The translations under genes were made by a program, and so were the position numbers. From contig JBCJTT010000007.1 in assembly GCA_039744215.1 (NCBI GenBank), positions 5,598-69,597 of the forward strand: a stretch of 64,000 bases of DNA, read 5' to 3'. Origin of the DNA: Solirubrobacteraceae bacterium (GTDB lineage Bacteria > Actinomycetota > Thermoleophilia > Solirubrobacterales > Solirubrobacteraceae). Under the pieces are notes generated by a model that saw only the letters and a program-made list of their open reading frames with translations, searched no databases and had not been told where the DNA came from. Positions 26,077 to 45,118 of this stretch are shown here, piece by piece; the first letter of the stretch is position 1; every line of letters begins with the position of its first letter.

Positions 26077-26150
26077 CGCGATTTTGTCTGACCTACTCAC
26101 GCGCCTGACCCTAGCCGTCGATCGGCAAAACCAGCTGCGATTGGGCGCCA

Positions 26151-27386: not shown

Positions 27387-27412
27387 CAGCCGTTCGCTAC
27401 GATCAGCGCCCC

Positions 27413-27486
27413 GCCGGAGTAGCTCAGCTGGTTAGAGCAGCGGAATCATAATCCGCGTGTCGGGGGTTCGAGTCCCTCCTCCGGCA
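27413..27486 (+). tRNA. tRNA-Met (anticodon CAT; an Ile2/lysidine identity cannot be excluded)
   Basis: Hand-folded 74-nt cloverleaf. Acceptor GCCGGAG/CTCCGGC, D arm GCTC-AGCTGGTTA-GAGC, anticodon arm GCGGA-ATCATAA-TCCGC, variable GTGTC, T arm GGGGG-TTCGAGT-CCCTC, discriminator A. The G1:C72 pair argues against an initiator. CCA is not encoded. Confidence 0.85.
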
Positions 27487-27488
27487 TC
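27440..27488 (+). repeat. attL-like direct repeat (3' half of tRNA-Met plus 2 nt)
   Basis: GCGGAATCATAATCCGCGTGTCGGGGGTTCGAGTCCCTCCTCCGGCATC. Matches 45042-45090 at 48 of 49 positions. Confidence 0.85.
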
Positions 27489-27826
27489 CGCTTTCTTCCT
27501 GCATGGCGGCTCCTTTCGACGGCGCGCTGGGTGCGCGCGGAGGGAGTCTAGAGGCGTTTGTGTCCCGGATGTGTCCCGAGGCACGCACCCGCAACGAGGC
27601 ACAGCTGATCATCGCGTTCGGCGATGAGGCGGCGGCGGCCTCGGTGACGGGCAAGAGCTGGCTCGCGGATGCGCTGCGTGCTTGAGACGTTCGCGTCATC
27701 GTCGTCGATCTCGGCCCCGAAGTTCGAGCAGGTCTCCTCGCTGCGCAAGCCCGTCAGGTCATGGTCAACCGGGTCGCCGACTCGACTAACTACAGCGGAC
27801 GCGTCTCCGAGACCGTGACAAGCCAC

Positions 27827-28038
27827 TCAGGCGTGCCGAACGGCGTCCTGGCTCGTATGCAACAGGCGCAGGTGACACGCGATGTGGATCACGATCACGA
27901 CGTCCTGTCGCGTGGCAGGACCATGCAAGCCGTGCGCAACTGCGTTCCTGAGGTTCACGCCTAGAGGATCGGTCAGCGCGTTTACGAGGTACCTTCGCCA
28001 CGATTCGTCCAGCCGTCCATGAAGGTCAACGAGGACCG
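27827..28038 (-). pseudogene. C-terminal fragment of a HEPN-motif (Rx4H) protein, abutting or disrupted by the IS
   Basis: The frame reads through the left IS inverted repeat. It contains LRNAVAHG (R-x4-H). No intact N-terminus remains, because upstream codons are antisense to the transposase. Confidence 0.3.
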
Positions 28039-29200
28039 CCTGAAGGGTGCCAAAACGATGTTCGGCCGCTGAAATGCGGGTGTTCGCGGTGCTCGTCACG
28101 ATCACGGGATGACCGGGCCGCTGATCTACCGCTGCGTTCTTGCTGTCTTGAAGCTGATCGTGCGTCGGGCCGGATCGGCCGCTGCGAAGGATCTCGAGAT
28201 CGTGTTGCTGCACCACCAGCTGCAGGTCCTTCGTCGCCAGCACCCCAGGCCAAAGCTCAAGCCGTGGGATCGCGTGTTCATGGCGTCTGTCGCTCAAGTC
28301 CTCTCACCGAGACGACGGCATGGTCTCCTGGTCACGCCGCAGACCATGTTGCGCTGGCATCGACGGCTCGTGCGCCGCCACTGGACCTCTGGGCACACCG
28401 GCACGAGCGGCCGCCCGCCGATCCCGGACGCGACCCGCCAGATGGTCGTGCGGCTCGCGCGGGAGAACCCGAGATGGGGATACCAGCGCATCGCCGGTGA
28501 ACTGCAGAAGCTCGGCGTCAAAGTCTCGCCGAGCACCGTCCGCCGTATCCTCGCCCGCTCGGGACTGCAGCCGGCGCCCCGTCGGATCGGCCCGACGTGG
28601 AGCCAGTTCCTGCGCGCCCAGACGGCCGGGATGATCGCGTGCGACTTCTTCACCGTCGACACCGCGTTCCTGCGCCGCTACTACGTGTTGTTCGTGATCG
28701 ACATCCACACCCGCCGGCTGCACCTCGCTGGGGTTACTCGTAACCCCGACGGGCCGTGGGTTACGCAACAGGCACGGAACCTCAGCATGACCGGGGTGCT
28801 CGACGACGCTCGGTTCCTGATCCGCGACCGCGACACCAAGTTCACCGCCGCGTTCGACGCCGTCTTCCAGTCCGACGGGGTCCGGGTGCTGCAGACCCCG
28901 TTCCGCACGCCCCAGGTCAACGGCTACGCCGAACGCGTGGTACGCACGATCCGTAGCGAGTGCCTTGACTGGATCATCATCCGCGGCCACCGGCATCTCC
29001 AGCAGGTCCTTGAAATCTACGTCCAGCGCTACAACGAGCAGCGACCGCACCGTGCGCTCGGCCGACGACCCCCGGTCGCCGTCGCCGCAACCCCGCAACA
29101 AGGCCCCGCGGACCTGCGCCGACACGACCGCCTCGGCGGCCTCATCCACGAGTACTACACAGACGCAGCCTGACCGAACCTAGTTTTGGCACCCTTTAGG
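28039..29200 (+). mobile_element. IS element (single-ORF rve/DDE transposase, IS481/IS3-superfamily-like), 1162 bp
   Basis: Imperfect 30-bp terminal inverted repeats with 25/30 identity. Left is CCTGAAGGGTGCCAAAACGATGTTCGGCCG at 28039-28068. The reverse complement of 29171-29200 is CCTAAAGGGTGCCAAAACTAGGTTCGGTCA. One 354-aa transposase ORF lies between them. No clear target-site duplication. Confidence 0.75.
28109..29173 (+). CDS. DDE (rve, integrase-core) transposase
   Basis: 354 aa. N-terminal KDLEIVLLHHQLQVLRR...LVTPQTMLRWHRRLVRRHW module and ENPRWGYQRIAGELQKLG HTH. DDE core: ACDFFTVDT, LIRDRDTKF and PQVNGYAERVVRTIRSE. Confidence 0.85.
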   Translation: MTGPLIYRCVLAVLKLIVRRAGSAAAKDLEIVLLHHQLQVLRRQHPRPKLKPWDRVFMASVAQVLSPRRRHGLLVTPQTMLRWHRRLVRRHWTSGHTGTSGRPPIPDATRQMVVRLARENPRWGYQRIAGELQKLGVKVSPSTVRRILARSGLQPAPRRIGPTWSQFLRAQTAGMIACDFFTVDTAFLRRYYVLFVIDIHTRRLHLAGVTRNPDGPWVTQQARNLSMTGVLDDARFLIRDRDTKFTAAFDAVFQSDGVRVLQTPFRTPQVNGYAERVVRTIRSECLDWIIIRGHRHLQQVLEIYVQRYNEQRPHRALGRRPPVAVAATPQQGPADLRRHDRLGGLIHEYYTDAA

Positions 29201-29502
29201 GCGTGGCGGTGCTGCAACTCGTTGTCCGGGAGATCTGCCAGCACGACGCGTGTGTGCTGAGCCTCGACGACCAGCGTGCTTGTGCGGCGCAGCCACGCGG
29301 CCCGCTCGATTCGCACGCGCAGCGCGTAACCGCCGTGCGTCATCCGATTGATGTCCAGCACCACGGGCGCGGAGTGCGGGGTGACGCTGTACGGCGTCCC
29401 CGCGAAGCAGAACGAGCCGAGGTCCACCTCGACTTCCATCCGGCGGCCTTCGCCGCTCTGCAGACGCATCCTCCCGATGTCGAGGGTGTCCGTCCGGGCC
29501 AT
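29201..29502 (-). pseudogene. hypothetical ORF truncated at the right IS end
   Basis: ATG at 29502 (MARTDTLDIGRMRL...). The frame runs into the IS inverted repeat and terminates inside it. Confidence 0.35.
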
Positions 29503-29528
29503 CACCGCAGCGTAGAAGATGACCCGCC

Positions 29529-30404
29529 TCAGCGAGACCGGCGCACCGACAGCACGATCTTCGCGGTGATCCAGCAGTCGCCGTCGGCGTTGAGCGCTCC
29601 GGGGGCGGGTATCCCGGCCGAACCGGACTTGGTGGAGGCGCGCGCTAAGTTGCACGGCCCGGCGACGACGATCGACCGTCGCAGCCGATCACGGCGCTTG
29701 AGGTTGAACAGCTTGACCGAGGCCAGCCCGGTCGGCAGCGAAAGGGATACGCCGGGATACCAGGACGTGCTGATGTGGGCGTTGCTGGGGGTGCCGAAGA
29801 GCTCGACTATGCCAGCATTGCCACCGGAACACGACCCGAAGTCCTGGGCGCCACCGCTGCGGATCACCGACAACATCATCGGATTGCCGCCGAGCGGGAC
29901 CGGGTCGTCCTCATTGCCCTCGGACTTGACGGCCGACGTCAGCGCGACCGACGTCTTTCCTTTTATCTTCACGCACGTGGGCGGGACCGGCTCGGGGTCC
30001 GGCGCGATCGGTGCGCAGTAATTCGTGGTGCCGAACCCGGTGATCCCGCCGGTGATGTTGGCCGAGCCCACCGCGCGGGAGAACCCCGTCGTGATCACCC
30101 CGTCCATCCCCGGAAACACGGTGTTAGTCAGGCGCGTTCTCACGTACTTGCTCGTCTCGAACGTGTACCGGTTGGTCTGCGTGTACGTCACGCCGGGGGA
30201 GCAGCGGCTGGTCGTGTCCGTGAGCTGGCGCGTCTCCACGTACCCGGCGACGTCGAGGTCGAGCTTCGCGACCTGCAGGAACTTGGGCGCCTTCATCGCC
30301 GCGGCGCCGGCGTCGGCCATGGCCGCGGACGGCACCAAGGCGAGTCCGAGCGTGGCGGCGACGGAGGCCGACAGCGCGAGCACGGCGTGCGAACCAGAGC
30401 TCAT
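29529..30404 (-). CDS. secreted protein of unknown function
   Basis: 291 aa. Signal peptide MSSGSHAVLALSASVAATLGLALVPSAAMA. Gly/Thr/Ser-rich with 8 Cys. No domain recognised. A consensus promoter sits directly upstream. Confidence 0.6.
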   Translation of the reverse strand: MSSGSHAVLALSASVAATLGLALVPSAAMADAGAAAMKAPKFLQVAKLDLDVAGYVETRQLTDTTSRCSPGVTYTQTNRYTFETSKYVRTRLTNTVFPGMDGVITTGFSRAVGSANITGGITGFGTTNYCAPIAPDPEPVPPTCVKIKGKTSVALTSAVKSEGNEDDPVPLGGNPMMLSVIRSGGAQDFGSCSGGNAGIVELFGTPSNAHISTSWYPGVSLSLPTGLASVKLFNLKRRDRLRRSIVVAGPCNLARASTKSGSAGIPAPGALNADGDCWITAKIVLSVRRSR

Positions 30405-30410
30405 GGGCCG

Positions 30411-30438
30411 ATCATACGCGCGGCTCGGAACCTGTCAA
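30411..30438 (-). promoter_or_regulatory. sigma-70/SigA-type promoter giving a leaderless mRNA
   Basis: Minus strand reads TTGACA (30438-30433), a 16-nt spacer, TATGAT (30416-30411), 6 nt, then the ATG at 30404. Confidence 0.55.
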
Positions 30439-30465
30439 GTCGTTTGAGACAGTGGGTCTGTGAAT

Positions 30466-30678
30466 TTAGTGGCGGGCCTCCGGGCTTGGGGTGGGGTCTT
30501 GGGGCTTGTTGATCCAAGCGCCGGTCGGGAGCGCAGACGGCGGCCGCGGCGGGCGGCGAACGAAGCGCTCCGGGGTGGCGGCGTAGGCGGCGTTGAGGAC
30601 CTGTGCGCGGGCGGCGTGGGTCTGCTCGGCTCGGCCGTGATGCACGACGTTCGGGGTCATGAGGCCGATCGTGCTCAT
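30466..30678 (-). pseudogene. C-terminal relic of a second rve-type transposase
   Basis: STIGLMTPNVVHHGRAEQTHAARAQVLNAAYAATPERFVRRPPRPPSALPTGAWINKP matches the conserved tail (HSGIGL.TP..VHYG...R..VL..AY..HPERFV...P.PP.LP..AWIN.P) of actinobacterial DDE transposases. No catalytic core lies upstream. Confidence 0.55.
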
Positions 30679-31103
30679 TGCATGACTCCCGGGACGTACG
30701 ACTAAATGTACGTATATTGAGGAGGGCAACTCGTCGCGCGGTACACACGTCGCACAGACTGCAGGCAAGGCTGCCGTCACCCGGCGATCCGCACGTCCAA
30801 GGAGTCACGTCGCCGCCGCGGAGGATGGAGCCAGACTCCATTTGGTCGAACTCCTGGAAGAGCCGACGAGCTTGGACGCCACGGTGGTCGGACCAACAAC
30901 GGCCCGACCCCACAGCGCCTCGTACACCACTTCTAACGACATGACCTTGGGACGCGAATGGGACGCGGTGAGTCGCAGTCAGGCGGTCGGCGTCACGGCG
31001 CGACCAGCGTCCGCTACTTGCCGTGTTTGAGGGTGCGCCACTTGCTGCTCTTCCCAGCCCGGTCCCTGATGGGAGCGAGCGGCCAGCGACCAATCCCGCG
31101 ATG

Positions 31104-32303
31104 CTAGATCTCGCAGACAGCGATAGCTGGGGCGTCGCGGCGAGCTTTCTCGGTCGTGGTCGTCAGGTCGCCGAGGGGGGCATAGGTGACGCGGCCGGGA
31201 TCGAGGTCAAGCGCCGCGGCATCGTCTGGTTCCAAGCGTTCCATGAGACTCTTCGAGGCGAGCGCCAGGCCGCCGCTGGCGCAGGCCTCGATGCGGGCGC
31301 CTTCGTTGACTTCGTCGCCGAGGGCCGTGACCTCCGTGCGCCCGCCGGTCGTGATGTTCCCGACGTACAGCGTGGATCCCCAGTGCAGGCCGAAGCGCAG
31401 CACGACGTCCTCGGGCTGCAGTTCGCTGCGAGCGGCGACCTCGCGGACAGCCACTCGGAGCGCGCGGGCGGCGGTGATGCACGCGCGCGCGGCGGCGGAC
31501 TCTGATCCGCACGTCTCGGTCAGAAAGAATGCGACGACGCCGTCACCGACGTGGCGTCCGACGATGCCGCCTGCGTCGATGACGCACTGGTCGGCGGCTC
31601 GAACCAGGCGCCTGCCGAGCGCGAAGTAGCTGGCGGTCGAGAGGCGCCGCGCGAGCTGGTAGGACCCTTCCAGGTCGGCGAACAGGATTGCCGCGGGACG
31701 CCTACGGGCCTCGGCGACGCGTTGCATCCGCTCGACGTGCCGCCGATCGGCGGAGATGGTCATCGCGCCCAGCGTTGCCATGTCCGCCGCGGGCTTGGAG
31801 ATCAGCATCGTTCCGGCCAGCCACCCAGCGGCGTCGCGCAGGCGCGTTGCGATGACGGGAATGTCCTCGAGGACCCAAATGCACATCCAGCCGCCTGCAA
31901 GCACCAGTACCGCTGGATCGGCCGGCGAGAGCTCGTCGACCAGATCACTCAGCGCCGGATCCACCAGCTCGCGCAGCTCATCGCGCCCACCCGGGGTGTC
32001 GGCAAGGATCCACCCGCCGAGGCCGGCGAAGTAGTCCCTTTGGAGCTCGTTCGTGTTGTACCCAAAGGGCCACGTCCTGCTTTTGGCCACCGCCTCGGGC
32101 CCGAAGAAGTGAGCGCCGATCGCAAACGGTGCGAGCTCGACGAAGCCGCCGAAAGTGCGGCGCAGCGCGTCGGTCACATAGACAAGCCGCCAGCGGTCGT
32201 CGACGACCCACCCCCAGTGACCTGTGTCGCGCAACGCGATCGCCGCTTGCGCGAGCACCGGGTCCTCAGGCAGCGGGTACGACTCCTGACCGTCCTCAGG
32301 CAT
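31104..32303 (-). CDS. class III adenylate/guanylate cyclase with uncharacterised N-terminal sensor region
   Basis: Trimmed to the ATG at 32303, because the longer ORF reads through a tRNA fragment. Cyclase motifs AILFADLEGS, GDGVVAFF, RFGLHWG and GDEVNEGARIE. Confidence 0.75.
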   Translation of the reverse strand: MPEDGQESYPLPEDPVLAQAAIALRDTGHWGWVVDDRWRLVYVTDALRRTFGGFVELAPFAIGAHFFGPEAVAKSRTWPFGYNTNELQRDYFAGLGGWILADTPGGRDELRELVDPALSDLVDELSPADPAVLVLAGGWMCIWVLEDIPVIATRLRDAAGWLAGTMLISKPAADMATLGAMTISADRRHVERMQRVAEARRRPAAILFADLEGSYQLARRLSTASYFALGRRLVRAADQCVIDAGGIVGRHVGDGVVAFFLTETCGSESAAARACITAARALRVAVREVAARSELQPEDVVLRFGLHWGSTLYVGNITTGGRTEVTALGDEVNEGARIEACASGGLALASKSLMERLEPDDAAALDLDPGRVTYAPLGDLTTTTEKARRDAPAIAVCEI

Positions 32304-32427
32304 CGCCCAACCATACCTCGCGTGCCCAACGATGCCCGTTCTCGCTCCGGACGAGAGGTATCGCGCGGTGCCCGCCCCCGGGGTCGGCGGCGCTTCAGCC
32401 TCAGCATTTGCAGGCCGTTCTTTTGAA

Positions 32428-32469
32428 TGGAGCCAGACGGGATCAAACCGTCGACCTCCTGCTTGCAAA
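32428..32469 (-). pseudogene. tRNA-Ala(TGC) 3' fragment (anticodon loop to discriminator)
   Basis: Reverse complement is TTTGCAAGCAGGAGGTCGACGGTTTGATCCCGTCTGGCTCCA. This aligns with the 3' 42 nt of bacterial tRNA-Ala(UGC) (compare E. coli TTTGCACGCAGGAGGTCTGCGGTTCGATCCCGCATAGCTCCA). No matching 5' half is present. Confidence 0.55.
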
Positions 32470-32590
32470 CGAACCCAGACGGGTCACAAGAAGACACCGA
32501 TGGTCAGGGACGCCGGGTCCTTCCTCCCGGTCGGGACGGGGTGAAGCGGTGCTCCTGCTTGTCGTCTCTATGAAAGAGGGATGGCGGGGC

Positions 32591-32621
32591 GTGGGCGAGG
32601 CGCCGGTGCGCCGTCGCCCAC
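32591..32621 (-). terminator. hairpin downstream of the cupin gene (possible intrinsic terminator)
   Basis: An 8-bp stem, GTGGGCGA (32591-32598) pairing with TCGCCCAC (32614-32621), lies 10 nt after the stop. The downstream T-tract is weak. Confidence 0.3.
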
Positions 32622-32630
32622 AACGGTGGT

Positions 32631-33077
32631 TCAGGCAGCAGCTGGTGCGCCCTGGTTGAGGACGGTCGCGCCCATCGGCTGCATGGGTTCGGTGAAGGTC
32701 GAGATGATCTCAGACTCGGAGAAGAAGCCCACGCACTTGAAGGTCTCGTCGCCCATGTTGCGTAGAGCGTGGGGGACCATTGCGGGGATCACGGCGAGTT
32801 CTCCAGCCGTCAGGTGCCCGCGCTCGTCGCCTACTTCTGCCTCTGCCTCGCCGGCGACGACGTAGAGGATCTCCTCGGCGCTGTCGGTGTGGATGGGGAG
32901 CTGGTCGCCCGGCTCGATTTCGAAGTAGACGACGGCGCTGTCGTCGGAGCCGGCCCACTTGTTGATCGGGAACGTGCAGCGCACGCGCTGGTGCTCGGGG
33001 TCGCTGTCGAGCCAGACCTGAGTCAGCTCGAGTTCGGTGGTGTTGGCAGTTAGCATGTCTGGAGTCCCGTCTTTCAT
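32631..33077 (-). CDS. cupin-domain protein
   Basis: 148 aa. Cupin motifs in GDQLPIHTDSAEEILYVVAGEAE and AVIPAMVPHALRN. Confidence 0.75.
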   Translation of the reverse strand: MKDGTPDMLTANTTELELTQVWLDSDPEHQRVRCTFPINKWAGSDDSAVVYFEIEPGDQLPIHTDSAEEILYVVAGEAEAEVGDERGHLTAGELAVIPAMVPHALRNMGDETFKCVGFFSESEIISTFTEPMQPMGATVLNQGAPAAA

Positions 33078-33104
33078 AGAACAGCTTTGGTCGATGGATT
33101 ACTG

Positions 33105-33133
33105 ACCCTACCTCGGGCTGTATCGCCTGTCAA
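33105..33133 (-). promoter_or_regulatory. sigma-70/SigA-type promoter for the cupin gene, overlapped by a palindrome
   Basis: Minus strand reads TTGACA (33133-33128), a 17-nt spacer, then TAGGGT (33110-33105). The palindrome GTCAA-GT-TTGAC at 33129-33140 covers the -35. Confidence 0.5.
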
Positions 33134-33154
33134 GTTTGACTGCACGGTTATGAG

Positions 33155-33967
33155 CTACGAAAGGCCGCTTGAGCGGACACCGAGTGGTTCGAGCCAGGCT
33201 GCGGGCAGCGTCGGCGGGACCCTTCCCGGGTAGTCCGGGACGACCCGCAGGGCGAGCTCGCCGGCCGGGCGGTGCTCGATTGCCGGCCGTAGGTCGTCGA
33301 ACGCCATCGCCAGTCGCAGGCTTGGGGCGATCTGGAAGTCGGCGACGTTGAGATTCTCGCCGCCGAGCGTGCCGTCGGCGATCCAGTCGTCAATCCGCTG
33401 CAGCATTCCGGGCAGGGCCGCAATGTCGCGTTGCACGTCGGCGTCGCTGACATCGTGCGAGCGGGCGTCGAGCGCGATGAACGGGCCGGCCATCCTGACT
33501 CCCAGGCCGTGCGGGAGGCCGATCTTCGCGCCCTCCAGGAAGCTGCGCAGCGGCGCCACGTCCTGCTTGAGCATCCACAGCAGGATCTGACGCACGCAGT
33601 GCTGCAGATCCTCGTCGCCGAACCGCTCGGCCACCTCCACCTGTGCACGGAGGCCGGGATCAGCGGGGAAGATGGCCGGCTCGGGCCGCAGGCGCTCGAG
33701 CTCACGGGCGATCTCCGTCGAGCCCTGGACCCGTCGCCCGTCGATCTTGATCGCCGGCACCGTCACGCGCGGGAAGCGCAGCACCTTGAGCACGCCCCAC
33801 GAGACCACGGGAAGCAGGTCGGTGCGTCTATATGGAATGCCCTTGAGTTCGAGCATCCGCTGCACGGCGACCCCGGGGTGCGAGCCGGGGATCGTGAACA
33901 GCCGCACTTTGAACGGGCCGGCCGGCTCCAGGCGGGTTTCGGCAGGCGTTGTCGCTGTGGTCGTCAT
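33155..33967 (-). CDS. glutathione S-transferase-like protein (thioredoxin-fold N-domain)
   Basis: About 270 aa. The GST_N-like segment VRLFTIPGSHPGVAVQRMLELKGIPY...VPAIKIDGRRVQGSTEIAREL is followed by a helical C-domain. Start is the ATG at 33967 or the GTG at 33991. Confidence 0.65.
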   Translation of the reverse strand: MTTTATTPAETRLEPAGPFKVRLFTIPGSHPGVAVQRMLELKGIPYRRTDLLPVVSWGVLKVLRFPRVTVPAIKIDGRRVQGSTEIARELERLRPEPAIFPADPGLRAQVEVAERFGDEDLQHCVRQILLWMLKQDVAPLRSFLEGAKIGLPHGLGVRMAGPFIALDARSHDVSDADVQRDIAALPGMLQRIDDWIADGTLGGENLNVADFQIAPSLRLAMAFDDLRPAIEHRPAGELALRVVPDYPGRVPPTLPAAWLEPLGVRSSGLS

Positions 33968-34012
33968 GTCAGCTGCCTTTTCATTGAACACACTTGGTTG
34001 ATGTATTTGGCG

Positions 34013-34041
34013 ACGCTACGCCCGACCAAGCCATCTGTCAA
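34013..34041 (-). promoter_or_regulatory. sigma-70/SigA-type promoter for the GST-like gene, in the divergent region shared with tetR
   Basis: Minus strand reads TTGACA (34041-34036), a 17-nt spacer, then TAGCGT (34018-34013). Confidence 0.45.
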
Positions 34042-34057
34042 GCTTCAGTGCACAGCC

Positions 34058-34687: not shown

Positions 34688-34902
34688 CTCCACCCGGCAA
34701 GACGGTGGCCCACCGCCTGCGCGCCGCTCCGCATCCCCGCAGACCAGTTCTCCCTGCGGCGTGCCCGTAGACGCGGCTCGGACCACGATTCCCGCGGGCC
34801 CACCGGTGCCAGCGATGGCCGCGCGCAGGCAGGCGAACGTTGCGCTGTGTCCGCCGTCGACAAACTCGTCGGCGACGTGGAGCGTGGCCTGGGATTGCGG
34901 TG

Positions 34903-37225: not shown

Positions 37226-38673
37226 AGTGGGATGTTCCTTGTCGGCTGGGGTGGGCGGTGCACATCGGCGAGTGTCTGCAACGAGGAGGCGATTCGGTTG
37301 CGCGTCTCGTCTGGCGTGACGATCTCGTCGATGTGGCCGAGCGCCGCGACGGCCTTCACGTCCAGGTGCTCGGCCGCGTAGCGCCCCGCCAGCCGGTCGC
37401 GGGCACGGTCGGAATCGGGATCGGCAGCAATCTCGCGGTGGTTGACGATGCCGACCGCCTGCGGTGCGCCCATCACGCCGATCTGGGCCTGCGGCCAGGC
37501 GAACACGAGATCGGCGCCCAAGCCCTTGCTGTTCATCGCGATGAACGCGCCGCCGAAGGCCTTACGGGTGACGACGGTGATCTTCGGCACCGTGGCGGCG
37601 GCGAAGGCGTGCACGAGCTTGGCGCCGTGGCGGATCACCCCCGCCTGCTCCTGAGCGCTGCCGGGCAGGAATCCGGGAGTGTCGACCAGGACGATCAGCG
37701 GCAGTCCGAACGAGTCGCAGGTGCGCACGAAGCGCGCCGCCTTGGATGCGGACTCGGCGTCGAGCACTCCGCCGAGGTAACGCGGCTGGTTGGCCACGAT
37801 CCCGACCGCGCGGCCGTCGAGACGCGCGAAGCCGCACACCATGTTGCGCGCCCACTTTTCGCCGATCTCGATCATCCGGCCACCGTCGACGAGCAGGCGT
37901 ATCAGGTGGCGCACGTCGTACACGCGGCGATGCTCGTCGGGGACGACAGCGCTCGCCGAGCCCGCGAGCGGCGGGACGGTCGGCCAGCGCTGCGCCGTGG
38001 CGCCGGTGTGCTGGGGCAGATGGTCGAGGATGTCGCGGGCCAGCAGTGCCCCGTCGACCTCGGACTCCACGACGGCGTGGCAGACGCCGTTGCGCTGATG
38101 GACCCGCGGACCACCGAGCTCGTCGCCGGTGACCTGCTCGCCGGTCACCTCCTCCACGATGCCCGGCCCGGTGAGGAACATGCTGGCCGAACGCGTCATG
38201 ATCACCAAGTCGGTGAGCGCGGGTGCGTACGAACCCCCACCGGCGCTGGCGCCACAGACGACGCTGATCTGCGGCACCTGACCCGACAGCATGGTGTGGG
38301 CACGGAAGATGCGGCCATAACCCGACAGCGCGCCGGTGCCTTCCTGCATGCGCGCTCCGGCCGACTCGATGAAGCCCACGACGGGCATGCGACCGCGCCC
38401 CGCGAGCTCCAGCAGTCGCACCACGGTGTCGGCGTGGGCCTCGCCCAGCGACCCGCCGGCGAAGCTCGCGTCCTGCGCGAAGCAGGCCACGGCGCGGTCG
38501 TCGACGGTGCCGGTGGCGGCGAGAACGCCGTCGCCGTCACGGGCCTTCTCGCCCATGCGCGAGGAACGCACACCGGTGCGCAGCAGTTGAAGGGACCCCG
38601 GGTCGCAGAGGACCTCCAGGCGCTCGAGCGGCGACAGGCGCTCATCGGGGCGGGGGACCAGCGCGAGGCTCAT
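37222..38673 (-). CDS. acyl-CoA carboxylase carboxyltransferase beta subunit (AccD6-like, short form)
   Basis: 483 aa with two crotonase-like carboxyl_trans halves (GGSLGEAHA, ESAGARMQEG, ANQPRYLGG, DTPGFLPG). No biotin carboxylase or BCCP gene in the cluster. Confidence 0.85.
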   Translation of the reverse strand: MSLALVPRPDERLSPLERLEVLCDPGSLQLLRTGVRSSRMGEKARDGDGVLAATGTVDDRAVACFAQDASFAGGSLGEAHADTVVRLLELAGRGRMPVVGFIESAGARMQEGTGALSGYGRIFRAHTMLSGQVPQISVVCGASAGGGSYAPALTDLVIMTRSASMFLTGPGIVEEVTGEQVTGDELGGPRVHQRNGVCHAVVESEVDGALLARDILDHLPQHTGATAQRWPTVPPLAGSASAVVPDEHRRVYDVRHLIRLLVDGGRMIEIGEKWARNMVCGFARLDGRAVGIVANQPRYLGGVLDAESASKAARFVRTCDSFGLPLIVLVDTPGFLPGSAQEQAGVIRHGAKLVHAFAAATVPKITVVTRKAFGGAFIAMNSKGLGADLVFAWPQAQIGVMGAPQAVGIVNHREIAADPDSDRARDRLAGRYAAEHLDVKAVAALGHIDEIVTPDETRNRIASSLQTLADVHRPPQPTRNIPL

Positions 38674-39875
38674 ACGCCTTCCAGTACCAGTACGGCGTTG
38701 TGCCCGCCGAAGCCGAAGGAACTGGACAACGCGACGGCGGGGAGATCGTCCTCGCGGGCGGCGAGCGGTCGTGCCCGGCCCGGGACGTAATCCAGGTCCA
38801 GGCCCTCGTCGGGCTGCTCGTAGCCGAGCGTGGGCGGAGCGACGCGGTCGCGTAGCGCCAACAGCGTGGCGATCGCCTCGACGGCGCCGGCCGCACCGAG
38901 CAGGTGCCCGATCGATGACTTCAGAGACGACGTCGGGATGCGGTGGGCGTCCGCCCCCAGCGCCGTCTTCAGCGCCATCGTCTCGGCGCGATCGTTCAGC
39001 TGGGTGCTCGTCCCGTGGGCGTTCACGTAGTCGATCGCCGCGGGGGTCAGCCCGGCGTCGTGGAGCGCGGCGGTGATCGCGCGGGCGGCGCCCGCGCCGT
39101 CGGGGTGAGGGGCGACCATGTGGTGTGCGTCGCAGGTGGCGCCGTAGCCACGGACGGTCCCGAGGATCCGTGCACCGCGGGCCCGGGCCGCCGCGCCGTC
39201 CTCCAGGACGAGCACGCCCGCCCCCTCACCCATCACGAAGCCGTCCCGTCGCGCGTCGAACGGGCGGGAGATGCCGCTCGATGACGTGGCGTCAAGCGCA
39301 CCGAAGGAGGCGCGCGACAACGGGGTCAGCGCTGCTTCGGCGCCGCCGGTGACCACGGCGTCGGCGTCGCCGCAGGCGATCATCCGGGCGGCGACGCCGA
39401 TCGCGTGGGTGCCCGACGCGCAGGCCGAGACCACGCCGTAGCAGGGACCCTGCAGGCCATGGCGCATCGCCAACGCGGCGGCGGCGGCGTTGCCCATCAT
39501 CAACGGAACCGAGCGGGGTGAGACCCCGCTGGCGCCGCGCCCCAGCAGGTCGGTCTGCCCGGCCTCGATCGTGGCCAGACCCCCGACCCCCGTCCCGATC
39601 ACGCAGCCGATCCGCGTGGGATCCACCGGCGGCCCGTCGCCCCAGCCGGCGTCGATCAGCGCTTCCTCACCGGCGGCGATGGCCAGCTGGGTGAAGCGGT
39701 CCGCTCGCCGGGCCTCCTTGCGCGACATTGTGTCGAGCGGGTCGAAGTCCGCGCACGGAGCCTCGCCGCCCACAATCGCGCAGACGCCCGACGTCCAGCG
39801 CTCGTGCAGCGTGCGGGCGCCAACCCCCAGCGGGGTGATCGCTCCGACTCCGGTGACGACGACATCGGCGCGCAT
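38670..39875 (-). CDS. fabF: beta-ketoacyl-ACP synthase II
   Basis: Start set to the ATG at 39875 (MRADVVVTGVGAITPLG), 4 nt after the ACP stop. Active-site contexts SACASGTHAIG, NAHGTSTQ and GHLLGAAG. Confidence 0.9.
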   Translation of the reverse strand: MRADVVVTGVGAITPLGVGARTLHERWTSGVCAIVGGEAPCADFDPLDTMSRKEARRADRFTQLAIAAGEEALIDAGWGDGPPVDPTRIGCVIGTGVGGLATIEAGQTDLLGRGASGVSPRSVPLMMGNAAAAALAMRHGLQGPCYGVVSACASGTHAIGVAARMIACGDADAVVTGGAEAALTPLSRASFGALDATSSSGISRPFDARRDGFVMGEGAGVLVLEDGAAARARGARILGTVRGYGATCDAHHMVAPHPDGAGAARAITAALHDAGLTPAAIDYVNAHGTSTQLNDRAETMALKTALGADAHRIPTSSLKSSIGHLLGAAGAVEAIATLLALRDRVAPPTLGYEQPDEGLDLDYVPGRARPLAAREDDLPAVALSSSFGFGGHNAVLVLEGV

Positions 39876-39879
39876 GGCG

Positions 39880-40122
39880 TCAGGCGCGCTGCGCAATCAG
39901 GTCGATCGCCTCGCCGACGGTCCCGATTCCCCGGATATCGTCGCTCTTTAGCTCGACTCCGAACTCCTCCTCGACGATCTGGGCCAGCTCAGCCAGGTCG
40001 AGCGAATCGATGTCCAGCGCCTCGAACGAGGCGTCCCGGCTGATGTCGCCTGGCTCGGCGCCGAAATCCGCCAGCGCCTTCGTGACGACGTCTTCGATCT
40101 TCGTGTTGTCAGTGGTGCCCAT
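39880..40122 (-). CDS. acyl carrier protein
   Basis: 80 aa. Phosphopantetheine site is LDIDSLDLAEL. AAGGAG lies 8 nt upstream of the ATG. Confidence 0.9.
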   Translation of the reverse strand: MGTTDNTKIEDVVTKALADFGAEPGDISRDASFEALDIDSLDLAELAQIVEEEFGVELKSDDIRGIGTVGEAIDLIAQRA

Positions 40123-40141
40123 GCGTGCTCCTTTGGTTGGT

Positions 40142-40879
40142 TTAGGCGGTCAGGCCGCCGTCGATGAACAGAGTGGTGGCGGTCACGTAGGCCGCCGCGT
40201 CGGAGGCGAGGAAAGCGACGCCCGCGGCGACGTCGTCCGGGCTGCCGGCGCGTCGTGCGGGGATCGCCTTCAACATTTCCTCATCGATCACATCGGTGGT
40301 CATGTCGGTCGCGATGAAGCCGGGAGCGACCGCGTTGACGGTGACGCCGCGGCGCGCGACCTCGACGCCAGCCGTGCGCGTGAAGCCGACGAGGCCGGCC
40401 TTGGACGCCGCGTAGTTGGCCTGGCCGGCGTTGGCGCGCGGCCCGACGACCGAGGCGATGTTGATCACGCGGCCGTAGCGGGCACGGACCATGCCTTTCA
40501 GGGCACCGCGCGTAAGACGGAACGCCGCCGTGAGGTTGGTGGCGAGGACGAGATCCCAGGCCTCGTCGCTGAGCGACATGGCCAGGTCGTCGGCGCGCAC
40601 ACCCGCGTTGTTGACCAGTCCGAGCACCGGTCCGTCGAGCGCCTCCTGGGCGCGGGTGAACACCGCGGCGGTGGCTGCCGCGTCGGTCACGTCGAGGTCG
40701 AGCGCGTGGGCGCGACCGCCGCCGGCGTGGATGACGTCGACTGTCCGGGCGGCGCCCTCGGGGTCGGAGCGGTAGGTCACCGCGACGGCCCAGTCGTCAG
40801 CGGCGAGGGCTCGGGCGCTCGCGGCGCCGATGCCTCCGGAGGCGCCGGTGACGAGGGCGACGGCGCCATCAGGACGCAT
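40142..40879 (-). CDS. fabG: 3-oxoacyl-ACP reductase
   Basis: Trimmed to the ATG at 40879. Motifs ALVTGASGGIG, NNAG and YAASKAG. Confidence 0.85.
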   Translation of the reverse strand: MRPDGAVALVTGASGGIGAASARALAADDWAVAVTYRSDPEGAARTVDVIHAGGGRAHALDLDVTDAAATAAVFTRAQEALDGPVLGLVNNAGVRADDLAMSLSDEAWDLVLATNLTAAFRLTRGALKGMVRARYGRVINIASVVGPRANAGQANYAASKAGLVGFTRTAGVEVARRGVTVNAVAPGFIATDMTTDVIDEEMLKAIPARRAGSPDDVAAGVAFLASDAAAYVTATTLFIDGGLTA

Positions 40880-41882
40880 CCGTATCACCCCAGGTGACGA
40901 CGGTCGCGGCCCAGGTAAACCCGGCGCCGAACGCGGCCAACAGGACGCGGTGGCCGGGCGCGAGCAGGCCGCGATCACGGGCCGTGCCCAGCGCCAGCGG
41001 GATTGACGCGGCCGACGTGTTGCCGTGCTCATCGATCGTGGCCAGGACCCGCTCGGGGGACAGGTCGAGCCGCTCGACCAGCGACTGCAGGATCCGGGCG
41101 TTGGCCTGGTGGAAGACGAGGAGGTCGAGGTCGTGGATGTCGATCCCGGCCTGCGCGCACGCGCCGAGCGCGGCTTCGCTAATTCGCGCGACGGCGTGGT
41201 GGAACACCTCGGGGCCGTCCATCCGGATCAGGCCGTCCCCGCGTTCGGCGTGCAGGAGCGGGCCGAGGCTGCCATCGGCGCCGAGCAACGTCGGGCCCAC
41301 ACCCGTGGCGGCACCGCTGCGGGCGCCGACGAGTACCGCGCCCGCGCCGTCACCGAAGATCGCCGCCGTCTTGCGGTCGGCGTAGTCGATGTGGCGGGCG
41401 AGCATCTCGGCGCCCACGACGAGCACGCGTTCGGCACGGCCCGATTCGAGCATCGCGGCCGCCAGCGCGAGGGCGGAGACCCACCCGCTGCAGGCGGCGC
41501 CAACGTCGAGCGCCCCTGCGTTCACGGCGCCCAACTCGTTGGCCAGCAGTGGCGCGGTGTGAGGGATGATCTCGTCTGACGAGCAGGTGGCGACGAGGAT
41601 CAGGTCAAGGTCGGCGGCGTCGACGCCCGCGTCGGCGAGCGCCTCACGGGCGGCGACGGCCGCTAGGTCGTGCAGATGATCACCGGGTGCTGAGCGGCGA
41701 CGCTCGCGGATACCCGTGCGCTTGATGATCCACGCGGGATCGACACCGGTGATCGCGGCGATCTCCTCGTTGGTGACCACCTCGACCGGTAGGGCCGTGC
41801 CCAAGCCGAGGATGACGGCGCCGGTAGTGGCGCGGAAGGCGGGGTCGGCGACCGAAACAGCCGTGCGTTCAGACGGGATCAT
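40869..41882 (-). CDS. fabH: beta-ketoacyl-ACP synthase III
   Basis: 337 aa. Cys-His-Asn contexts GAACSGW, FHQAN and HGNTSAAS. Confidence 0.85.
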   Translation of the reverse strand: MIPSERTAVSVADPAFRATTGAVILGLGTALPVEVVTNEEIAAITGVDPAWIIKRTGIRERRRSAPGDHLHDLAAVAAREALADAGVDAADLDLILVATCSSDEIIPHTAPLLANELGAVNAGALDVGAACSGWVSALALAAAMLESGRAERVLVVGAEMLARHIDYADRKTAAIFGDGAGAVLVGARSGAATGVGPTLLGADGSLGPLLHAERGDGLIRMDGPEVFHHAVARISEAALGACAQAGIDIHDLDLLVFHQANARILQSLVERLDLSPERVLATIDEHGNTSAASIPLALGTARDRGLLAPGHRVLLAAFGAGFTWAATVVTWGDTDAS

Positions 41883-42708
41883 GAGCGAGCTCCAGCTGCG
41901 GTGGGTTGCGATCGACCAGCTTGGCTAGGACGTCGCCCGGCCCCAAATCGATGAAGTTCTGGCACCCGTGACGGTACAACGCCGCCATGACCTCACGCCA
42001 GCGCACCGGCGCGGTGATCGCGGCCGACAGCTCGCCGACCGGGCCGGTGAACGGCTGCGCCGTCATCCCGCTGAACACCAGCCCGTCGGGTTCCCGCCAG
42101 TCGACCGATGCGGCGGCCTGCGAAAACGCGGTTCGCGCCGGCGCCATCGCGGGACAGTGGAAGGCGCCGGTGACGTTCAGCTCGATCGCGCGCAGCCCGC
42201 GATCGCGGGCGTCGCCGCGTGCGCTCTGCAGCGCGTCGCGGGGTCCCGACAGGACCACCTCCCCGGGCGCATTGTCGTTGGCCAGCACGAGCCCGTGGTC
42301 GTCTGCCAGCGACTGTGCCTCAGCGACGGAGCCCTTCAGCACGGCGAGCATCCCCTGCCCCGGGTCGCGCTCGGCGGCGCGGGCCATGGCGTCGCCGCGG
42401 ACGACCGCGAGATGCACGGCGTCGCGCTCGGACAGAGCGCCCGCCGCGGCCAGCGCCGTCAGCTCCCCCAGCGAATGCCCGGCGTAGGCGCGGTCCTCGG
42501 CCGGCACGGTGCCGCGCCACGCGGCGAGTCCGGCGAGCAGGATCGCCGGCTGGGCGAAGCGGGTGCTCTCATCGCACCGCGTGAACGGCTCCTCACCGAG
42601 CAGGTCGATGCACAGGTCGAGCAGATCGGGGGCCTGTACCCGGACGAGCGTGAGAGCCTCGGGGTCCTGGGTCCCCTGGCCCGGGAAGAGGTAGGCGGTT
42701 GTGGCCAC
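41869..42708 (-). CDS. fabD: malonyl-CoA:ACP transacylase
   Basis: Start set to the GTG at 42708 (VATTAYLFPGQGTQ). Nucleophile elbow is GHSLGE. Confidence 0.85.
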   Translation of the reverse strand: MATTAYLFPGQGTQDPEALTLVRVQAPDLLDLCIDLLGEEPFTRCDESTRFAQPAILLAGLAAWRGTVPAEDRAYAGHSLGELTALAAAGALSERDAVHLAVVRGDAMARAAERDPGQGMLAVLKGSVAEAQSLADDHGLVLANDNAPGEVVLSGPRDALQSARGDARDRGLRAIELNVTGAFHCPAMAPARTAFSQAAASVDWREPDGLVFSGMTAQPFTGPVGELSAAITAPVRWREVMAALYRHGCQNFIDLGPGDVLAKLVDRNPPQLELAHDPV

Positions 42709-42769
42709 GCAACCACCATAAACCAGTGTGGATGTGCGCACTCGGGCGGCGGCGTCCAGAACCGTCCGG

Positions 42770-42798
42770 TCGGGGGGTCGCACCCGCCGATCGGGGGG
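42770..42798. promoter_or_regulatory. two G6-tract boxes in the response-regulator/fabD intergenic region (candidate operator)
   Basis: TCGGGGGGTCGC at 42770-42781 and CCGATCGGGGGG at 42787-42798. Each is an exact 12-mer match to part of the palindromic site at 45007-45025. Confidence 0.4.
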
Positions 42799-42813
42799 CC
42801 GACGTTCTCAGCC

Positions 42814-43437
42814 TCAGCGCAGCAGACCGATCTGTTGTGCTCGGCGCACCGCTTCGGCCCGGTTGCGCACATCGAGCTTGCGGTACAGCAGGCTCGTGTG
42901 CTCCTTGACCGTATGCGGGGAGAGGTGCAGAGCCTCGGCGATCTCGCGGTTGGTGGCGCCAGTGCCGATGTGTTCCAGAACCTCGCGCTCACGGGCCGTC
43001 AGTTCGGGGCCACGGGGCTCCTCGGCGGGCGGGAACACCGTCTTGCCCATCCCCACCATGCGCACTGCGGCGGCAACGTCGGCGGCCGGCCACTCCTTCA
43101 GGACGAACCCGGCCGCACCGGCGGCGCGCGCGGCGGCCGGTGCGATGCGGCCGGCGCCCGAGATCAGCAGGACGCGCGGCGGGATCAGCAGCCCACGCAA
43201 GCGTTCGGTCAGCTCGGCGCCCGACTCGGGCCCGATGAACAGGTCGACGAGGGCGACGTGGGGTTCGTAGCGGGTCGCGAGAGCCACCGCCTGGTCGCCG
43301 TTGCGTGCGCTCAGCGTCCGCTCCACCCACGGCTGCTGGCCCAGCATCAGCCGGAAGCCCCAGTGCACGACGTCGTGGTCGTCGACGACCAGCACGCGCA
43401 GCCGCCGGTCCGGATTGCCCTCCACCTCGTCAGACAT
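42814..43437 (-). CDS. NarL/LuxR-family response regulator
   Basis: 207 aa. REC domain (VLVVDDH, ALVDLFIG) and LuxR HTH (LTAREREVLEHIGTGATNREIAEALHLSPHTVKEH). Confidence 0.85.
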   Translation of the reverse strand: MSDEVEGNPDRRLRVLVVDDHDVVHWGFRLMLGQQPWVERTLSARNGDQAVALATRYEPHVALVDLFIGPESGAELTERLRGLLIPPRVLLISGAGRIAPAAARAAGAAGFVLKEWPAADVAAAVRMVGMGKTVFPPAEEPRGPELTAREREVLEHIGTGATNREIAEALHLSPHTVKEHTSLLYRKLDVRNRAEAVRRAQQIGLLR

Positions 43438-44548
43438 CGCGGGGGATCACCAGACGCACCTGCCATTCGCCGGGCGCCGGGGAGCCGAACTCCAGCAGCG
43501 CGCCCTGGTGCAGGGCTTCGACGGCGGCGAGCCGGAGCCCGACCCCCGAGGCGCCCCGCCCGGCCCGGGCACCGTCATTGCGCACCTCCAGGACGAACGC
43601 CTCCTGCTCGTCGCGGATACGCACCCGGACGGCAGTCGGCTCGGCGTGTTTGTGGGCGTTGCGCACAGCCTCGGCCAGCACCGACTGCACCAGCGGTTCC
43701 AGCTCCGGCGGCACGGAGGTGGGGTCGCCCTCCTCCAGCACGACGCCCAGGTCGGCGTGCCCGGCGGCCAGGCGCGTCAGCTCGTCGGCGAGCGTTACCT
43801 GCGTGGGCCGCGGAGCCCGCCCCAGCGGCTTGGAGAGGGCCTCTCGCAGGTCGTGCATCGCCTGCTGCAACTCGTCAGCGGCGCGTACGCGGGACTCCGC
43901 GTCCAACGGCCCCTCCCCCGACAGCGCGAGGGAGACGCCGAACAGGCGCTGCACGACCCCGTCGTGGAGCTCGCGCGCCATGTCGATGCGCTCCTCCAGT
44001 TCCCTCGCGCGCTGGGATTGCGCCGTCGCCGAGCGGGCGGTGGCCGCAAGGGCCGCGGTCTTGCCCAAGGTCCAGAGCGTGTGGCGCTCGGGCTCAGACA
44101 GGCCGGGGCTGCCGGCCGGTCGGTCGGAGATGATCACGCCGACCCACTGGCCGCCCGCGGCCATCGGGGTGACGATGAGGCCGACGTCGGCGACGAGGCC
44201 GACGTAGTCGGGCGGCACGATGCCCGCCGTCTCGGTCTCCACCACGCGGTCCTCCTCGAGTGCCGTACGGGCCGCCTCTAGGGATTCCACCGTGAAGAAT
44301 CCGCCGTCGAAGATCTCCGCGTCGACACCGTGCGCCCCGGCCGCCCGGACCTGGCGGCGCGCCGCGTCGTAGCGGAAGATCACGGCGCGCTCCGCGCTCG
44401 TCAGGTCACAGATCACGCGGCACAGCTGGCTGTAGAACAGGCTGCCGTCCGCGTCGTCGGGCGCGTGCCCGTCCGGCACGGTGGACAGCACCTCCACGAA
44501 CGCATCGAGGGCCGCGATGTGCGCCCCAGGCCCACCAACTGCGCTCAC
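43430..44548 (-). CDS. GAF-domain sensor histidine kinase (HisKA_3 type)
   Basis: Start set to the GTG at 44548, a GTGA overlap with the upstream small ORF. GAF-like N-domain, H-box RELHDGVVQRL and ATPase N-box EAVRNAHKHA. Overlaps the RR start by 8 nt. Confidence 0.8.
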   Translation of the reverse strand: MSAVGGPGAHIAALDAFVEVLSTVPDGHAPDDADGSLFYSQLCRVICDLTSAERAVIFRYDAARRQVRAAGAHGVDAEIFDGGFFTVESLEAARTALEEDRVVETETAGIVPPDYVGLVADVGLIVTPMAAGGQWVGVIISDRPAGSPGLSEPERHTLWTLGKTAALAATARSATAQSQRARELEERIDMARELHDGVVQRLFGVSLALSGEGPLDAESRVRAADELQQAMHDLREALSKPLGRAPRPTQVTLADELTRLAAGHADLGVVLEEGDPTSVPPELEPLVQSVLAEAVRNAHKHAEPTAVRVRIRDEQEAFVLEVRNDGARAGRGASGVGLRLAAVEALHQGALLEFGSPAPGEWQVRLVIPRDV

Positions 44549-44796
44549 GACGGGCCAGCCCCCGCGAGGGTCAGGCGCAGGTACTGGAGTGGCGTGGCCT
44601 CGACGCGGTGCTGGTGGTCGCACGCCGAGCAGTGGCAGTCGACGTGGCCGTCGGTGGCGTCGCCCGCCAGCCGGGCCTCCGACGCCGCATGGAGGCACTG
44701 CGGGCAGGCCATCGAGGCGGCGACGAGGGCCTGAGGGTCATCCGGGGCGAACAGGGCGACGGCGGGCATGGCACCAACGCTAGCGCGGACGCTCAT
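44545..44796 (-). CDS. small Cys-rich (zinc-ribbon-like) protein
   Basis: 83 aa from the ATG at 44796, or 74 aa from the ATG at 44769. Motif is CPQC...CHCSAC. Its stop overlaps the kinase start. No Shine-Dalgarno seen. Confidence 0.4.
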   Translation of the reverse strand: MSVRASVGAMPAVALFAPDDPQALVAASMACPQCLHAASEARLAGDATDGHVDCHCSACDHQHRVEATPLQYLRLTLAGAGPS

Positions 44797-45006
44797 CGGC
44801 GCCCAACGGCGGGCACCTCCACCGGACGAACGGGGGGGGTCGGACGGGCCGCGTCCGTATCACGGCCGTCCTTGATGCGTCTGCGTGCAGGCATCAGCCC
44901 GTTCAAAACGACGCCTGCGTGCTCGGTCGTAAGGGAGAGCTCACGAATCAAGCTGTCGTCATCGTTCCAGTGACGGCTCCCGTGCGCGGGCACGCACCCG
45001 AGAAAT

Positions 45007-45025
45007 CCCCCGATCGGGGGGTCGC
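45007..45025. promoter_or_regulatory. perfect 14-bp palindrome CCCCCGATCGGGGG plus TCGC extension, upstream of the regulator/fab array
   Basis: Palindrome at 45007-45020. The 12-mers CCGATCGGGGGG (45010-45021) and TCGGGGGGTCGC (45014-45025) recur at 42787-42798 and 42770-42781. A related GGGGGGGGTCG lies at 44832-44842. Confidence 0.4.
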
Positions 45026-45041
45026 GGCCACGCCGCGGGCC

Positions 45042-45090
45042 GCGGAATCATAATCCGCGTGTCGGGGTTTCGAGTCCCTCCTCCGGCATC
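45042..45090 (+). repeat. attR-like direct repeat (displaced tRNA-Met 3' half)
   Basis: Matches 27440-27488 at 48 of 49 positions. The single mismatch is T45068 versus G27466. No 5' tRNA half lies upstream. Confidence 0.85.
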
Positions 45091-45118
45091 GCCAAAGGCT
45101 CGCCCCAGCAGGTCCTTC

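Follow-up and report, generated by a model that had tools for sequence, protein, structure and literature searches.

The window analysed here, 64,000 nucleotides of contig JBCJTT010000007.1 (assembly GCA_039744215.1) from a Solirubrobacteraceae bacterium, carries a tRNA-Met gene and, 17.6 kb further on, a second copy of its 3' part, with a complete type II fatty acid synthase (FAS-II) operon between the two; all coordinates below are those of the window. ARAGORN, run over the whole 64 kb, called one tRNA, an intact tRNA-Met(CAT) at 27413-27486 on the plus strand, which matched the Rfam tRNA model over its full length (67.2 bits) and which is identical in sequence in the relatives designated L001-L005, L090 and L091. 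Sequence reading and a repeat search placed the two copies of a 49-bp direct repeat at 27440-27488 and 45042-45090, both on the plus strand and offset by 17,602 bp. The repeat starts at the 5' arm of the anticodon stem and reaches 2 nt beyond the tRNA's 3' end, so that it takes in the last 47 nt of the gene. The copies agree at 48 of 49 positions, and the sole mismatch, G27466 versus T45068, lies in the 5' strand of the T-stem; these particulars, like the tRNA itself, are as an earlier note made from the sequence had described them. Such a match in 64 kb is far beyond chance. T45068 is private to this genome, and the right repeat of L090 is a perfect 49/49. Because the right copy lacks the 5' half of a tRNA (there is neither a D-arm nor an acceptor 5' strand) and no tRNA was called at 45042-45090 by ARAGORN, nor by Rfam at E ≤ 10, it is a displaced fragment and not part of a full second gene, the outcome that the earlier note had named as one that would count against integration. 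The tRNA-Met at 27413-27486 is thus the regenerated target, on the attL side; what is left of the original tRNA-Met, its displaced 3' fragment, is the right repeat, on the attR side.

The right-hand part of the interval is a constant block of ~10 kb, block C (34883-44837; GC 0.72), which consists of a single array of minus-strand genes. Gene identities were assigned with Pfam and NCBIfam on gene calls taken from L090. Read along the minus strand, the array begins with a small open reading frame (ORF; 44545-44796), a GAF/HisKA_3 kinase (43430-44548) and a LuxR-type response regulator (42814-43437), the last two recognized by Pfam. There follow FabD (41869-42708; Pfam only), FabH (40869-41882; NCBIfam score 347, cut-off 249), FabG (40142-40879; 238, cut-off 222), an acyl carrier protein (ACP; 39880-40122; Pfam), FabF (38670-39875; 449, cut-off 387), an acyl-CoA carboxyltransferase (37222-38673; Pfam), a MaoC-type dehydratase (36707-37225; Pfam only), FabI (35931-36710; 374, cut-off 299) and, as the terminal gene of this nine-gene operon, a thioester-reductase-like short-chain dehydrogenase/reductase (SDR; 34903-35934; Pfam). 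Encoded together, FabD, FabH, FabG, ACP, FabF, the dehydratase and FabI are a FAS-II operon, and the complete fab set reported between the repeats was borne out by both family collections. Block C is present at 95-99% identity in L090, L091, L094, L096, L097 and metagenome contigs (~95-98% for the Logan metagenome contigs), and it is carried at this locus by all ~8 related assemblies and by the metagenome contigs, that is, by every species-level relative examined. The Streptomyces-type actinobacterial FAS-II operon has the order fabD-fabH-acpP-fabF, and the operon described here has the same core order of FabD, FabH, ACP and FabF on one strand; we counted as shared features also FabI, which is InhA-like here, and the dehydratase, which is MaoC/Had-like. 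It differs from the Streptomyces type in comprising nine genes, with FabG, the carboxyltransferase, the dehydratase, FabI and the terminal thioester-reductase-like SDR added, and in being preceded by its own kinase and regulator pair inside a repeat-bounded island.

Between the tRNA and block C lie a short arm and a variable slot. The arm (27489-27540; ~52-54 nt, directly 3' of the tRNA) is shared by close relatives of the L001 type, which have the same tRNA followed by a diverged 54-nt form of it, and the alignment of L001 to the window ends at 27538; family-level relatives are without it, the sequence at this position in L002-L005 being unrelated. The arm probably belongs to the island side and would derive from attP. 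The first part of the slot, B1 (27541-30624), is shared with L090 and L091 and was annotated from Pfam matches, colinearity and gene calls. It contains a C-terminal fragment of a DUF4209 gene on the minus strand (Pfam match at ~27902-28015) and an IS481-family insertion sequence (IS) on the plus strand (28039-29200), which has 27-nt terminal inverted repeats and encloses a transposase gene (28109-29173) with Pfam matches to HTH_32 and rve_3; IS481 is the best NCBIfam match of this transposase, at 130 bits, below the cut-off of 224 bits. We read the IS flanks and found no clear target-site duplication. A simple insertion of the IS into the DUF4209 gene was considered and rejected, as joining the two IS sides restored no DUF4209 frame. 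B1 is completed by two minus-strand genes that belong to no family, an ORF of unknown function (29155-29502) and a gene for a secreted protein (29529-30386). The latter has a G+C content at third codon positions (GC3) of 0.89 and is only ~86% identical to its counterpart in L090, compared with 99% for the neighbouring DNA; it may encode a fast-evolving or recombining surface protein.

The second part of the slot, B2 (30625-34882; 4.3 kb), was found only in this genome among those examined, and ~160 bp take its place in L090 and L091. It encodes a PycC-like class III cyclase of 454 amino acids (31104-32468, minus strand; PADLOC PycC 70.6 bits, E = 3e-20), whose cyclase domain is C-terminal and scores only 21 bits on Pfam Guanylate_cyc, and, as recognized by Pfam, a cupin (32631-33077, minus), a glutathione S-transferase-like protein (33155-33991, minus) and a TetR regulator (~34100-34687, plus). 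Pfam and a reading of the ORFs revealed no Pycsar effector (a transmembrane or TIR protein with a cyclic-nucleotide-binding domain) beside the cyclase; ORF 30401-31093 was considered for this role and set aside as spurious, its translation being rich in Arg and Pro. Some 700 bp of B2 downstream of the cyclase gene have no credible ORF. The single IS and the regulators that the earlier note had placed between the repeats are therefore present, the latter as the TetR protein, the LuxR-type response regulator and the histidine kinase. Its transposase relic was not recovered, as a six-frame Pfam search of 27487-31100 gave only the IS and the DUF4209 fragment, and neither was its foreign tRNA fragment, no T-arm-like match being found in the island besides the repeat itself.

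To the right of block C, a GC-rich, non-coding right arm (44838-45041) runs from the operon promoter region to the right repeat and is present in L090 as well. Beyond the repeat lies a sulfatase gene on the minus strand (45119-46732), broken into different frames: Pfam recognizes the C-terminal part in 45119-45829 and the N-terminal part in 46175-46732, and the middle between these two ORFs has no match. This pseudogene is the neighbour that the tRNA originally had in the chromosome. On the left, the tRNA is preceded by a gene for a major facilitator superfamily (MFS) transporter (26151-27386, minus strand; Pfam MFS_1), a conserved neighbour found next to tRNA-Met also in L001-L005, L090 and L091. 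We located relatives by scanning genomes with this flanking MFS protein, which gave five loci with the MFS gene beside tRNA-Met (Solirubrobacteraceae), and reached the species-group assemblies through a search with the thioester reductase.

The composition of the interval sets it apart from its surroundings. Both flanks have a GC of ~0.65. Within the interval GC starts at 0.66-0.67 (27.5-34 kb) and rises to 0.70-0.74 (34-45 kb), and it falls to 0.62 in the first 1-kb window past the right repeat, that is, within a single 1-kb window. The genes at 34.9-44.8 kb have a GC3 of 0.87-0.90 versus 0.79-0.80 for flank genes, so that the greater use of G/C-ending codons attributed to the insert holds for this part of it. 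In GC content, the regulator genes and the non-coding right arm match the fab genes. Tetranucleotide usage was compared with that of the flanks by leave-one-out correlation: all windows between the repeats gave r values of 0.67-0.75, compared with 0.82-0.93 for flank windows. Taken whole, the 7.3-kb left part (slot B) correlated with the host at 0.76 and the 10-kb right part (block C) at 0.70, whereas size-matched pieces of the host never fell below 0.89. B and C correlated with each other at 0.85 and are thus closer to each other than either is to the host. The earlier note had looked for compositional breaks at 27.49 and 45.09 kb; in GC we found one at the right repeat and none at the left, and in tetranucleotide usage there is a break at ~27.5 kb. 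Because tetranucleotide usage is atypical across the whole interval and GC falls at the right repeat, we conclude that composition breaks at both repeats.

The same chromosomal neighbourhood occurs in relatives without the interval. In L003 there is one tRNA-Met, and the 3' end of a sulfatase gene comes next; the last 53 nt of this tRNA align to both repeat copies of the window, and the sulfatase orthologue aligns to the region 45119-46732. The spacing from tRNA to sulfatase in L003 is similar to that from the right repeat to the sulfatase in the window. The left flank of the window and its right flank (from 46626) lie ~280 bp apart in L004, around the tRNA. By these alignments, L003 and L004 have unoccupied sites, of the kind that the earlier note had proposed looking for, at the family level. 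L002, a Solirubrobacterales metagenome-assembled genome, carries a different insert in the same tRNA-Met (4460-5493), ~950 bp long, lower in GC and delimited by a 45-bp direct repeat whose start falls within the anticodon loop; it consists of one secreted pentapeptide-repeat gene and has no integrase. Since this repeat-bounded insert differs from that of the window, tRNA-Met is a recurrent integration target in the family.

Among close relatives, the locus varies at both sides of block C. The window itself has a slot of 7.3 kb (B1 and B2) and, right of C, the right arm, the 48/49 repeat and the sulfatase pseudogene. The slot of L090 and L091 is 3.2 kb long; both are colinear with the window over 20753-30624, and L090 also over 34883-45938, so that its right side is as in the window (the L091 contig ends inside block C). 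The genomes of the L001 type (L001 and L094, which are one contig, L096 and L097) have a different block, block F, with HpaB, hydrolases, a fumarylacetoacetate (FAA) hydrolase and an ABC transporter, ~21.5 kb in L001. This slot (L001 1-9842, L094 11033-21032) has a GC of 0.68, carries catabolic and transport genes (HpaB, flavin reductase, FAA hydrolase, acyl-CoA dehydrogenase and a branched-chain-type ABC transporter) and showed no mobility genes. On the right side of L094, 87 bp replace the right arm, repeat and sulfatase (~1.56 kb); L096 and L097 have the gene order of L094, likewise without a sulfatase, and their slot begins with the same F-block genes as that of L001. The freshwater metagenomes X1, X2 and X4 have lost ~240 bp right of C, including the repeat, with the same join (~44865 to 45105) in all three, and in X2 the slot is 2 nt long, the tRNA 3' end and an L001-type arm (27540) being joined to 34883. 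Metagenome joints with only 20-35 nt on one side were discarded as chance, and two with longer matches were kept. This comparison indicates that block C is constant, that the slot between arm and C is turning over and that the right repeat is being lost. The earlier note had held that identical content between tRNA and repeat in all relatives would argue against an island; what we found is a slot that differs from one relative to the next.

No gene that could account for the mobility of the whole interval was found. Neither Phage_integrase nor any other recombinase was detected by Pfam among the called ORFs or in the six-frame search of 27487-31100; block C is fully assigned to other families, and the remaining gaps are too short for an integrase. 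Pfam and PHROGs likewise gave no excisionase, replication, conjugation (FtsK-like transfer, relaxase) or phage structural or lysis gene between the repeats, the PHROGs matches being confined to the transposase and weak families of unknown function.

We consider it very probable that what remains at 27487-45041 is foreign DNA that integrated site specifically at the 3' part of tRNA-Met and that is now non-autonomous. The empty sites, the reuse of the same tRNA in L002 and the compositional breaks support the integration that the earlier note had proposed. Its picture of a 17.6-kb genomic island is too simple in some respects: the only mobility gene is one IS, the interval is composite (C shared, 7.3 kb variable) and the right repeat is a decaying relic. 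In the scenario that we favor, the insertion is old: foreign DNA would have entered an ancestor of this Solirubrobacteraceae species by recombination of the tyrosine-integrase type, the crossover point being in the anticodon-loop region of tRNA-Met. The DNA that came in would have supplied a new 3' part of the tRNA and displaced the original one 17.6 kb downstream, where it still precedes the sulfatase. The surviving cargo would be the 10-kb high-GC block with its two-component system and nine-gene FAS-II operon. Integration and transfer genes would later have been lost, most plausibly from the tRNA-proximal slot, which would have been their former place and which now shows fast gene turnover, while block C became fixed, the remaining scars eroded neutrally and sister lineages were locked in by deletion of the right repeat. 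What we infer here is the recombinase type, where its gene once lay, which lineage was the donor and how the events followed one another; the repeat, the empty sites, the compositional breaks, the lack of mobility genes and the differences between relatives are observed. With its integration and transfer genes lost, the island is non-autonomous and could at most be moved by a cognate integrase from elsewhere.

Several observations weigh against this reading. The relatives with empty sites are only 72-82% identical, at the family level, and are not sister strains. On the left, GC steps up at ~34.9 kb and not at the tRNA (27.49 kb), so B and C could have arrived separately. The empty-slot variant of X2 is a single contig of 347 nt at 3.9x depth. 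As no recombinase gene is present, the mechanism has to be read from the scar alone. No donor closer than ~75% nucleotide identity was found. Finally, because it is present in every species-level relative and looks like the family's housekeeping FAS-II operon, block C behaves as core rather than accessory DNA.

The alternative that survives best is that the interval came about in two or more independent events, with block C and the right repeat arriving first and the tRNA-proximal DNA (slot B in the window, the 21.5-kb catabolic block in L001) later, by IS-mediated or illegitimate recombination or by homologous replacement between strains, so that the region grew by accretion and was never one element; we put this at a little under an even chance. 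The difference in the slot among close relatives that share a constant C fits it, as does the GC step just mentioned. So do the single IS of the slot, which has no clean target duplication and is next to a truncated DUF4209 gene, and the absence of 30625-34882 from L090, together with short-repeat microhomology at a nearby 70-bp deletion. Integrase-mediated tandem accretion, however, would be expected to leave an internal att site or tRNA remnant at the B/C or F/C junctions, and a search of the junctions between slot and C for degenerate att sites or tRNA remnants gave none above shuffled controls; the atypical tetranucleotide signature shared by B and C also speaks against separate sources. 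Accretion concerns the later history of the slot and is compatible with integration at the tRNA rather than exclusive of it.

We regard as improbable the idea that the 17.6 kb are still mobile, in the manner of a cis-mobilizable element (CIME) that is excised and transferred by an integrase whose gene lies at another place in the genome or on a related element that enters the cell. The repeats are conserved (48/49 here, 49/49 in L090), yet this is what neutral drift predicts at 1-3% divergence. Retention of attL and attR without integration or transfer genes agrees with the published CIME definition (PMC6323972), and tRNA-Met is a recurrent target in the family, but the 64-kb window encodes no cognate integrase, and neither an excised circle nor an empty site was seen at the species level, where ~8 assemblies and the metagenome contigs all carry C. 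Should C be the only FAS-II operon, its excision would probably kill the cell. Between the window and L090, block C has an identity of 97.3-99.6%, compared with 95-97% for parts of the left flank (22.7-26.7 kb), a point in favor of mobility. The flanks show the same kind of mosaic, however: identity is 99.9% at 20.7-22.7 kb, and along 20753-27752 it drops from 99.9% to 95% at ~22.75 kb and returns to 99.8% at ~27.75 kb. This mosaic suggests ordinary homologous recombination among strains, which would be frequent.

Less probable still is a native block C, with a high GC intrinsic to a highly expressed operon and a repeat produced by a small or unrelated rearrangement, so that there would be no real island. 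Its presence in all species-level relatives, its role in core lipid synthesis, the conservation of the nine-gene operon across the Solirubrobacteraceae and the lack of a second FabF with at least 69% identity among the matches listed from the same assemblies are what one would expect of a native operon. Against it stand the equally GC-rich regulators and right arm, the fall in GC within 1 kb at the right repeat and the foreign tetranucleotide signature. Moreover, relatives that share both flanks have tRNA-Met directly beside the right flank without fab genes, and other family members carry the operon in a different conserved context without a tRNA. An intact prophage, integrative and conjugative element (ICE, or its actinomycete form) or composite transposon has in its favor that integration at a tRNA 3' end with a direct repeat is typical of prophages and ICEs and that one IS is present. 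It is refuted by gene content, as there are no phage, replication, transfer, relaxase, integrase or excisionase genes and the single IS copy is internal, with no other long repeat present.

Returning to the integrated remnant, we asked where its cargo came from. Block C has its nearest relatives among Solirubrobacteraceae of high GC. The nine-gene operon recurs in the same order, at 74-75% nucleotide identity, on two contigs with a GC of 0.745 (L092 and L093), in a conserved context that has neither a tRNA nor a kinase and regulator pair. A contig with a GC of 0.75 (L100) carries the whole array, small ORF, kinase and regulator included, at 75-76% nucleotide identity. The family-level relatives that share the flanks have a GC of 0.62-0.635. 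FabF homologues at 70-78% amino acid identity are mostly labelled Solirubrobacteraceae, and a scan of metagenome contigs with FabF found only distant contigs (≤65-68% amino acid identity). Block C looks like the standard FAS-II operon of the family, brought from a high-GC lineage into a genome with a GC of 0.65. The best 120 FabF matches, in a list that reached down to ~69% identity in draft assemblies, included none from species-group assemblies besides the block C copies. Two candidates for a second FabF copy that were found only at NCBI belong to unrelated assemblies. Block C may therefore be the only FAS-II operon of the species, with single-copy status not proven because only FabF matches of at least ~69% identity were listed and the assemblies are drafts.

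It is conceivable, if on the whole doubtful, that the island delivered a foreign high-GC FAS-II operon together with its own two-component regulator and that the native copy was then displaced. If this is what happened, an essential housekeeping pathway of a freshwater Solirubrobacteraceae species now resides on a tRNA-integrated element, and operon displacement would account for a block that is fixed in every relative and for an att site and a mobility module that decay. As an observation apart from this argument, L092 has an MFS gene (1913-3109), 71% identical in nucleotides to that of the window, directly upstream of the fabD of its operon (3223-11050); the MFS gene of the window is on the opposite side of the operon, across the tRNA. 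The proximity of MFS and fab genes in L092 could be a coincidence or an old linkage.

Comparison with known systems helps to place the element. Actinomycete integrative and conjugative elements (AICEs) such as pSAM2 and SLP1 integrate at tRNA 3' ends through an identity segment of ~45-60 bp, and their hallmark genes are int, xis, rep and an FtsK-like tra. The island described here resembles them in its actinobacterial host, its position at a tRNA 3' end and the size of the identity segment and differs in that int, xis, rep and FtsK-like tra are all missing. Flexible or additive genomic islands beside tRNA genes, a concept of Rodriguez-Valera, are known from aquatic bacterial populations. As in these, a tRNA-adjacent slot here holds different gene sets (0, 3.2, 7.3 and 21.5 kb) with a defence-like gene and catabolic genes; unlike in these, the slot is bordered by the tRNA on one side and by an older, fixed island block on the other, and the cassettes come without an integrase or internal att copies.

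The tRNA gene (tDNA) islands collected by Islander, whose ends are marked by a regenerated tDNA and a displaced fragment (Hudson, Lau & Williams 2015; PMC4383910), share with the interval a tRNA that marks one end and a displaced fragment, in direct orientation, that marks the other, a typical size, a foreign composition and absence from the same site in related genomes, which for the interval are family-level relatives only. The repeat, which begins at the anticodon stem, fits their class A, in which the att site is centred on the anticodon (PMC4383910). Because it lacks a tyrosine integrase (PF00589), the interval fails the Islander integrase filter and would be classed as a damaged or inactive island. 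CIMEs, described from Streptococcus thermophilus and other bacteria, have lost integration and transfer genes and kept attL and attR (ICEberg 2.0; PMC6323972), and the island described here likewise keeps attL and attR without integration and transfer genes of its own. It differs from CIMEs in that it seems to be fixed in the species and in that sister lineages are already without attR, which brings it nearer to a plain chromosomal region.

The island is thus of a known kind, a textbook tRNA 3'-end scar around foreign DNA, and is unusual mainly for carrying a complete fatty acid synthesis operon. A full FAS operon with a thioester reductase and its own kinase and regulator is atypical as accessory cargo, and if block C is the only copy, an integrative element would here have brought about the xenologous replacement of a core pathway. 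The relatives preserve stages of domestication in which the repeat is intact, mutated, deleted, or deleted together with the neighbouring pseudogene; with slot sizes of 0, 3.2, 7.3 and 21.5 kb, these stages form a natural series for island fixation. The locus also shows that tRNA-Met is used repeatedly as an integration site in an actinobacterial family that has received little study.

Two minor observations concern the left flank. The stretch between the ABC ATPase and MFS genes measures ~100 bp in the window (26041-26142) and ~650 bp in L001 (11239-11895). Further away, outside the island, a tRNA-like 3' fragment with a T-arm and acceptor strand, GTCGAGGGTTCGAGTCCCTTCAGCCGCTTC, lies at 523-552 on the plus strand; it received no tRNA call from ARAGORN or Rfam and may be the displaced piece of another tDNA island, one with its start upstream of the window.

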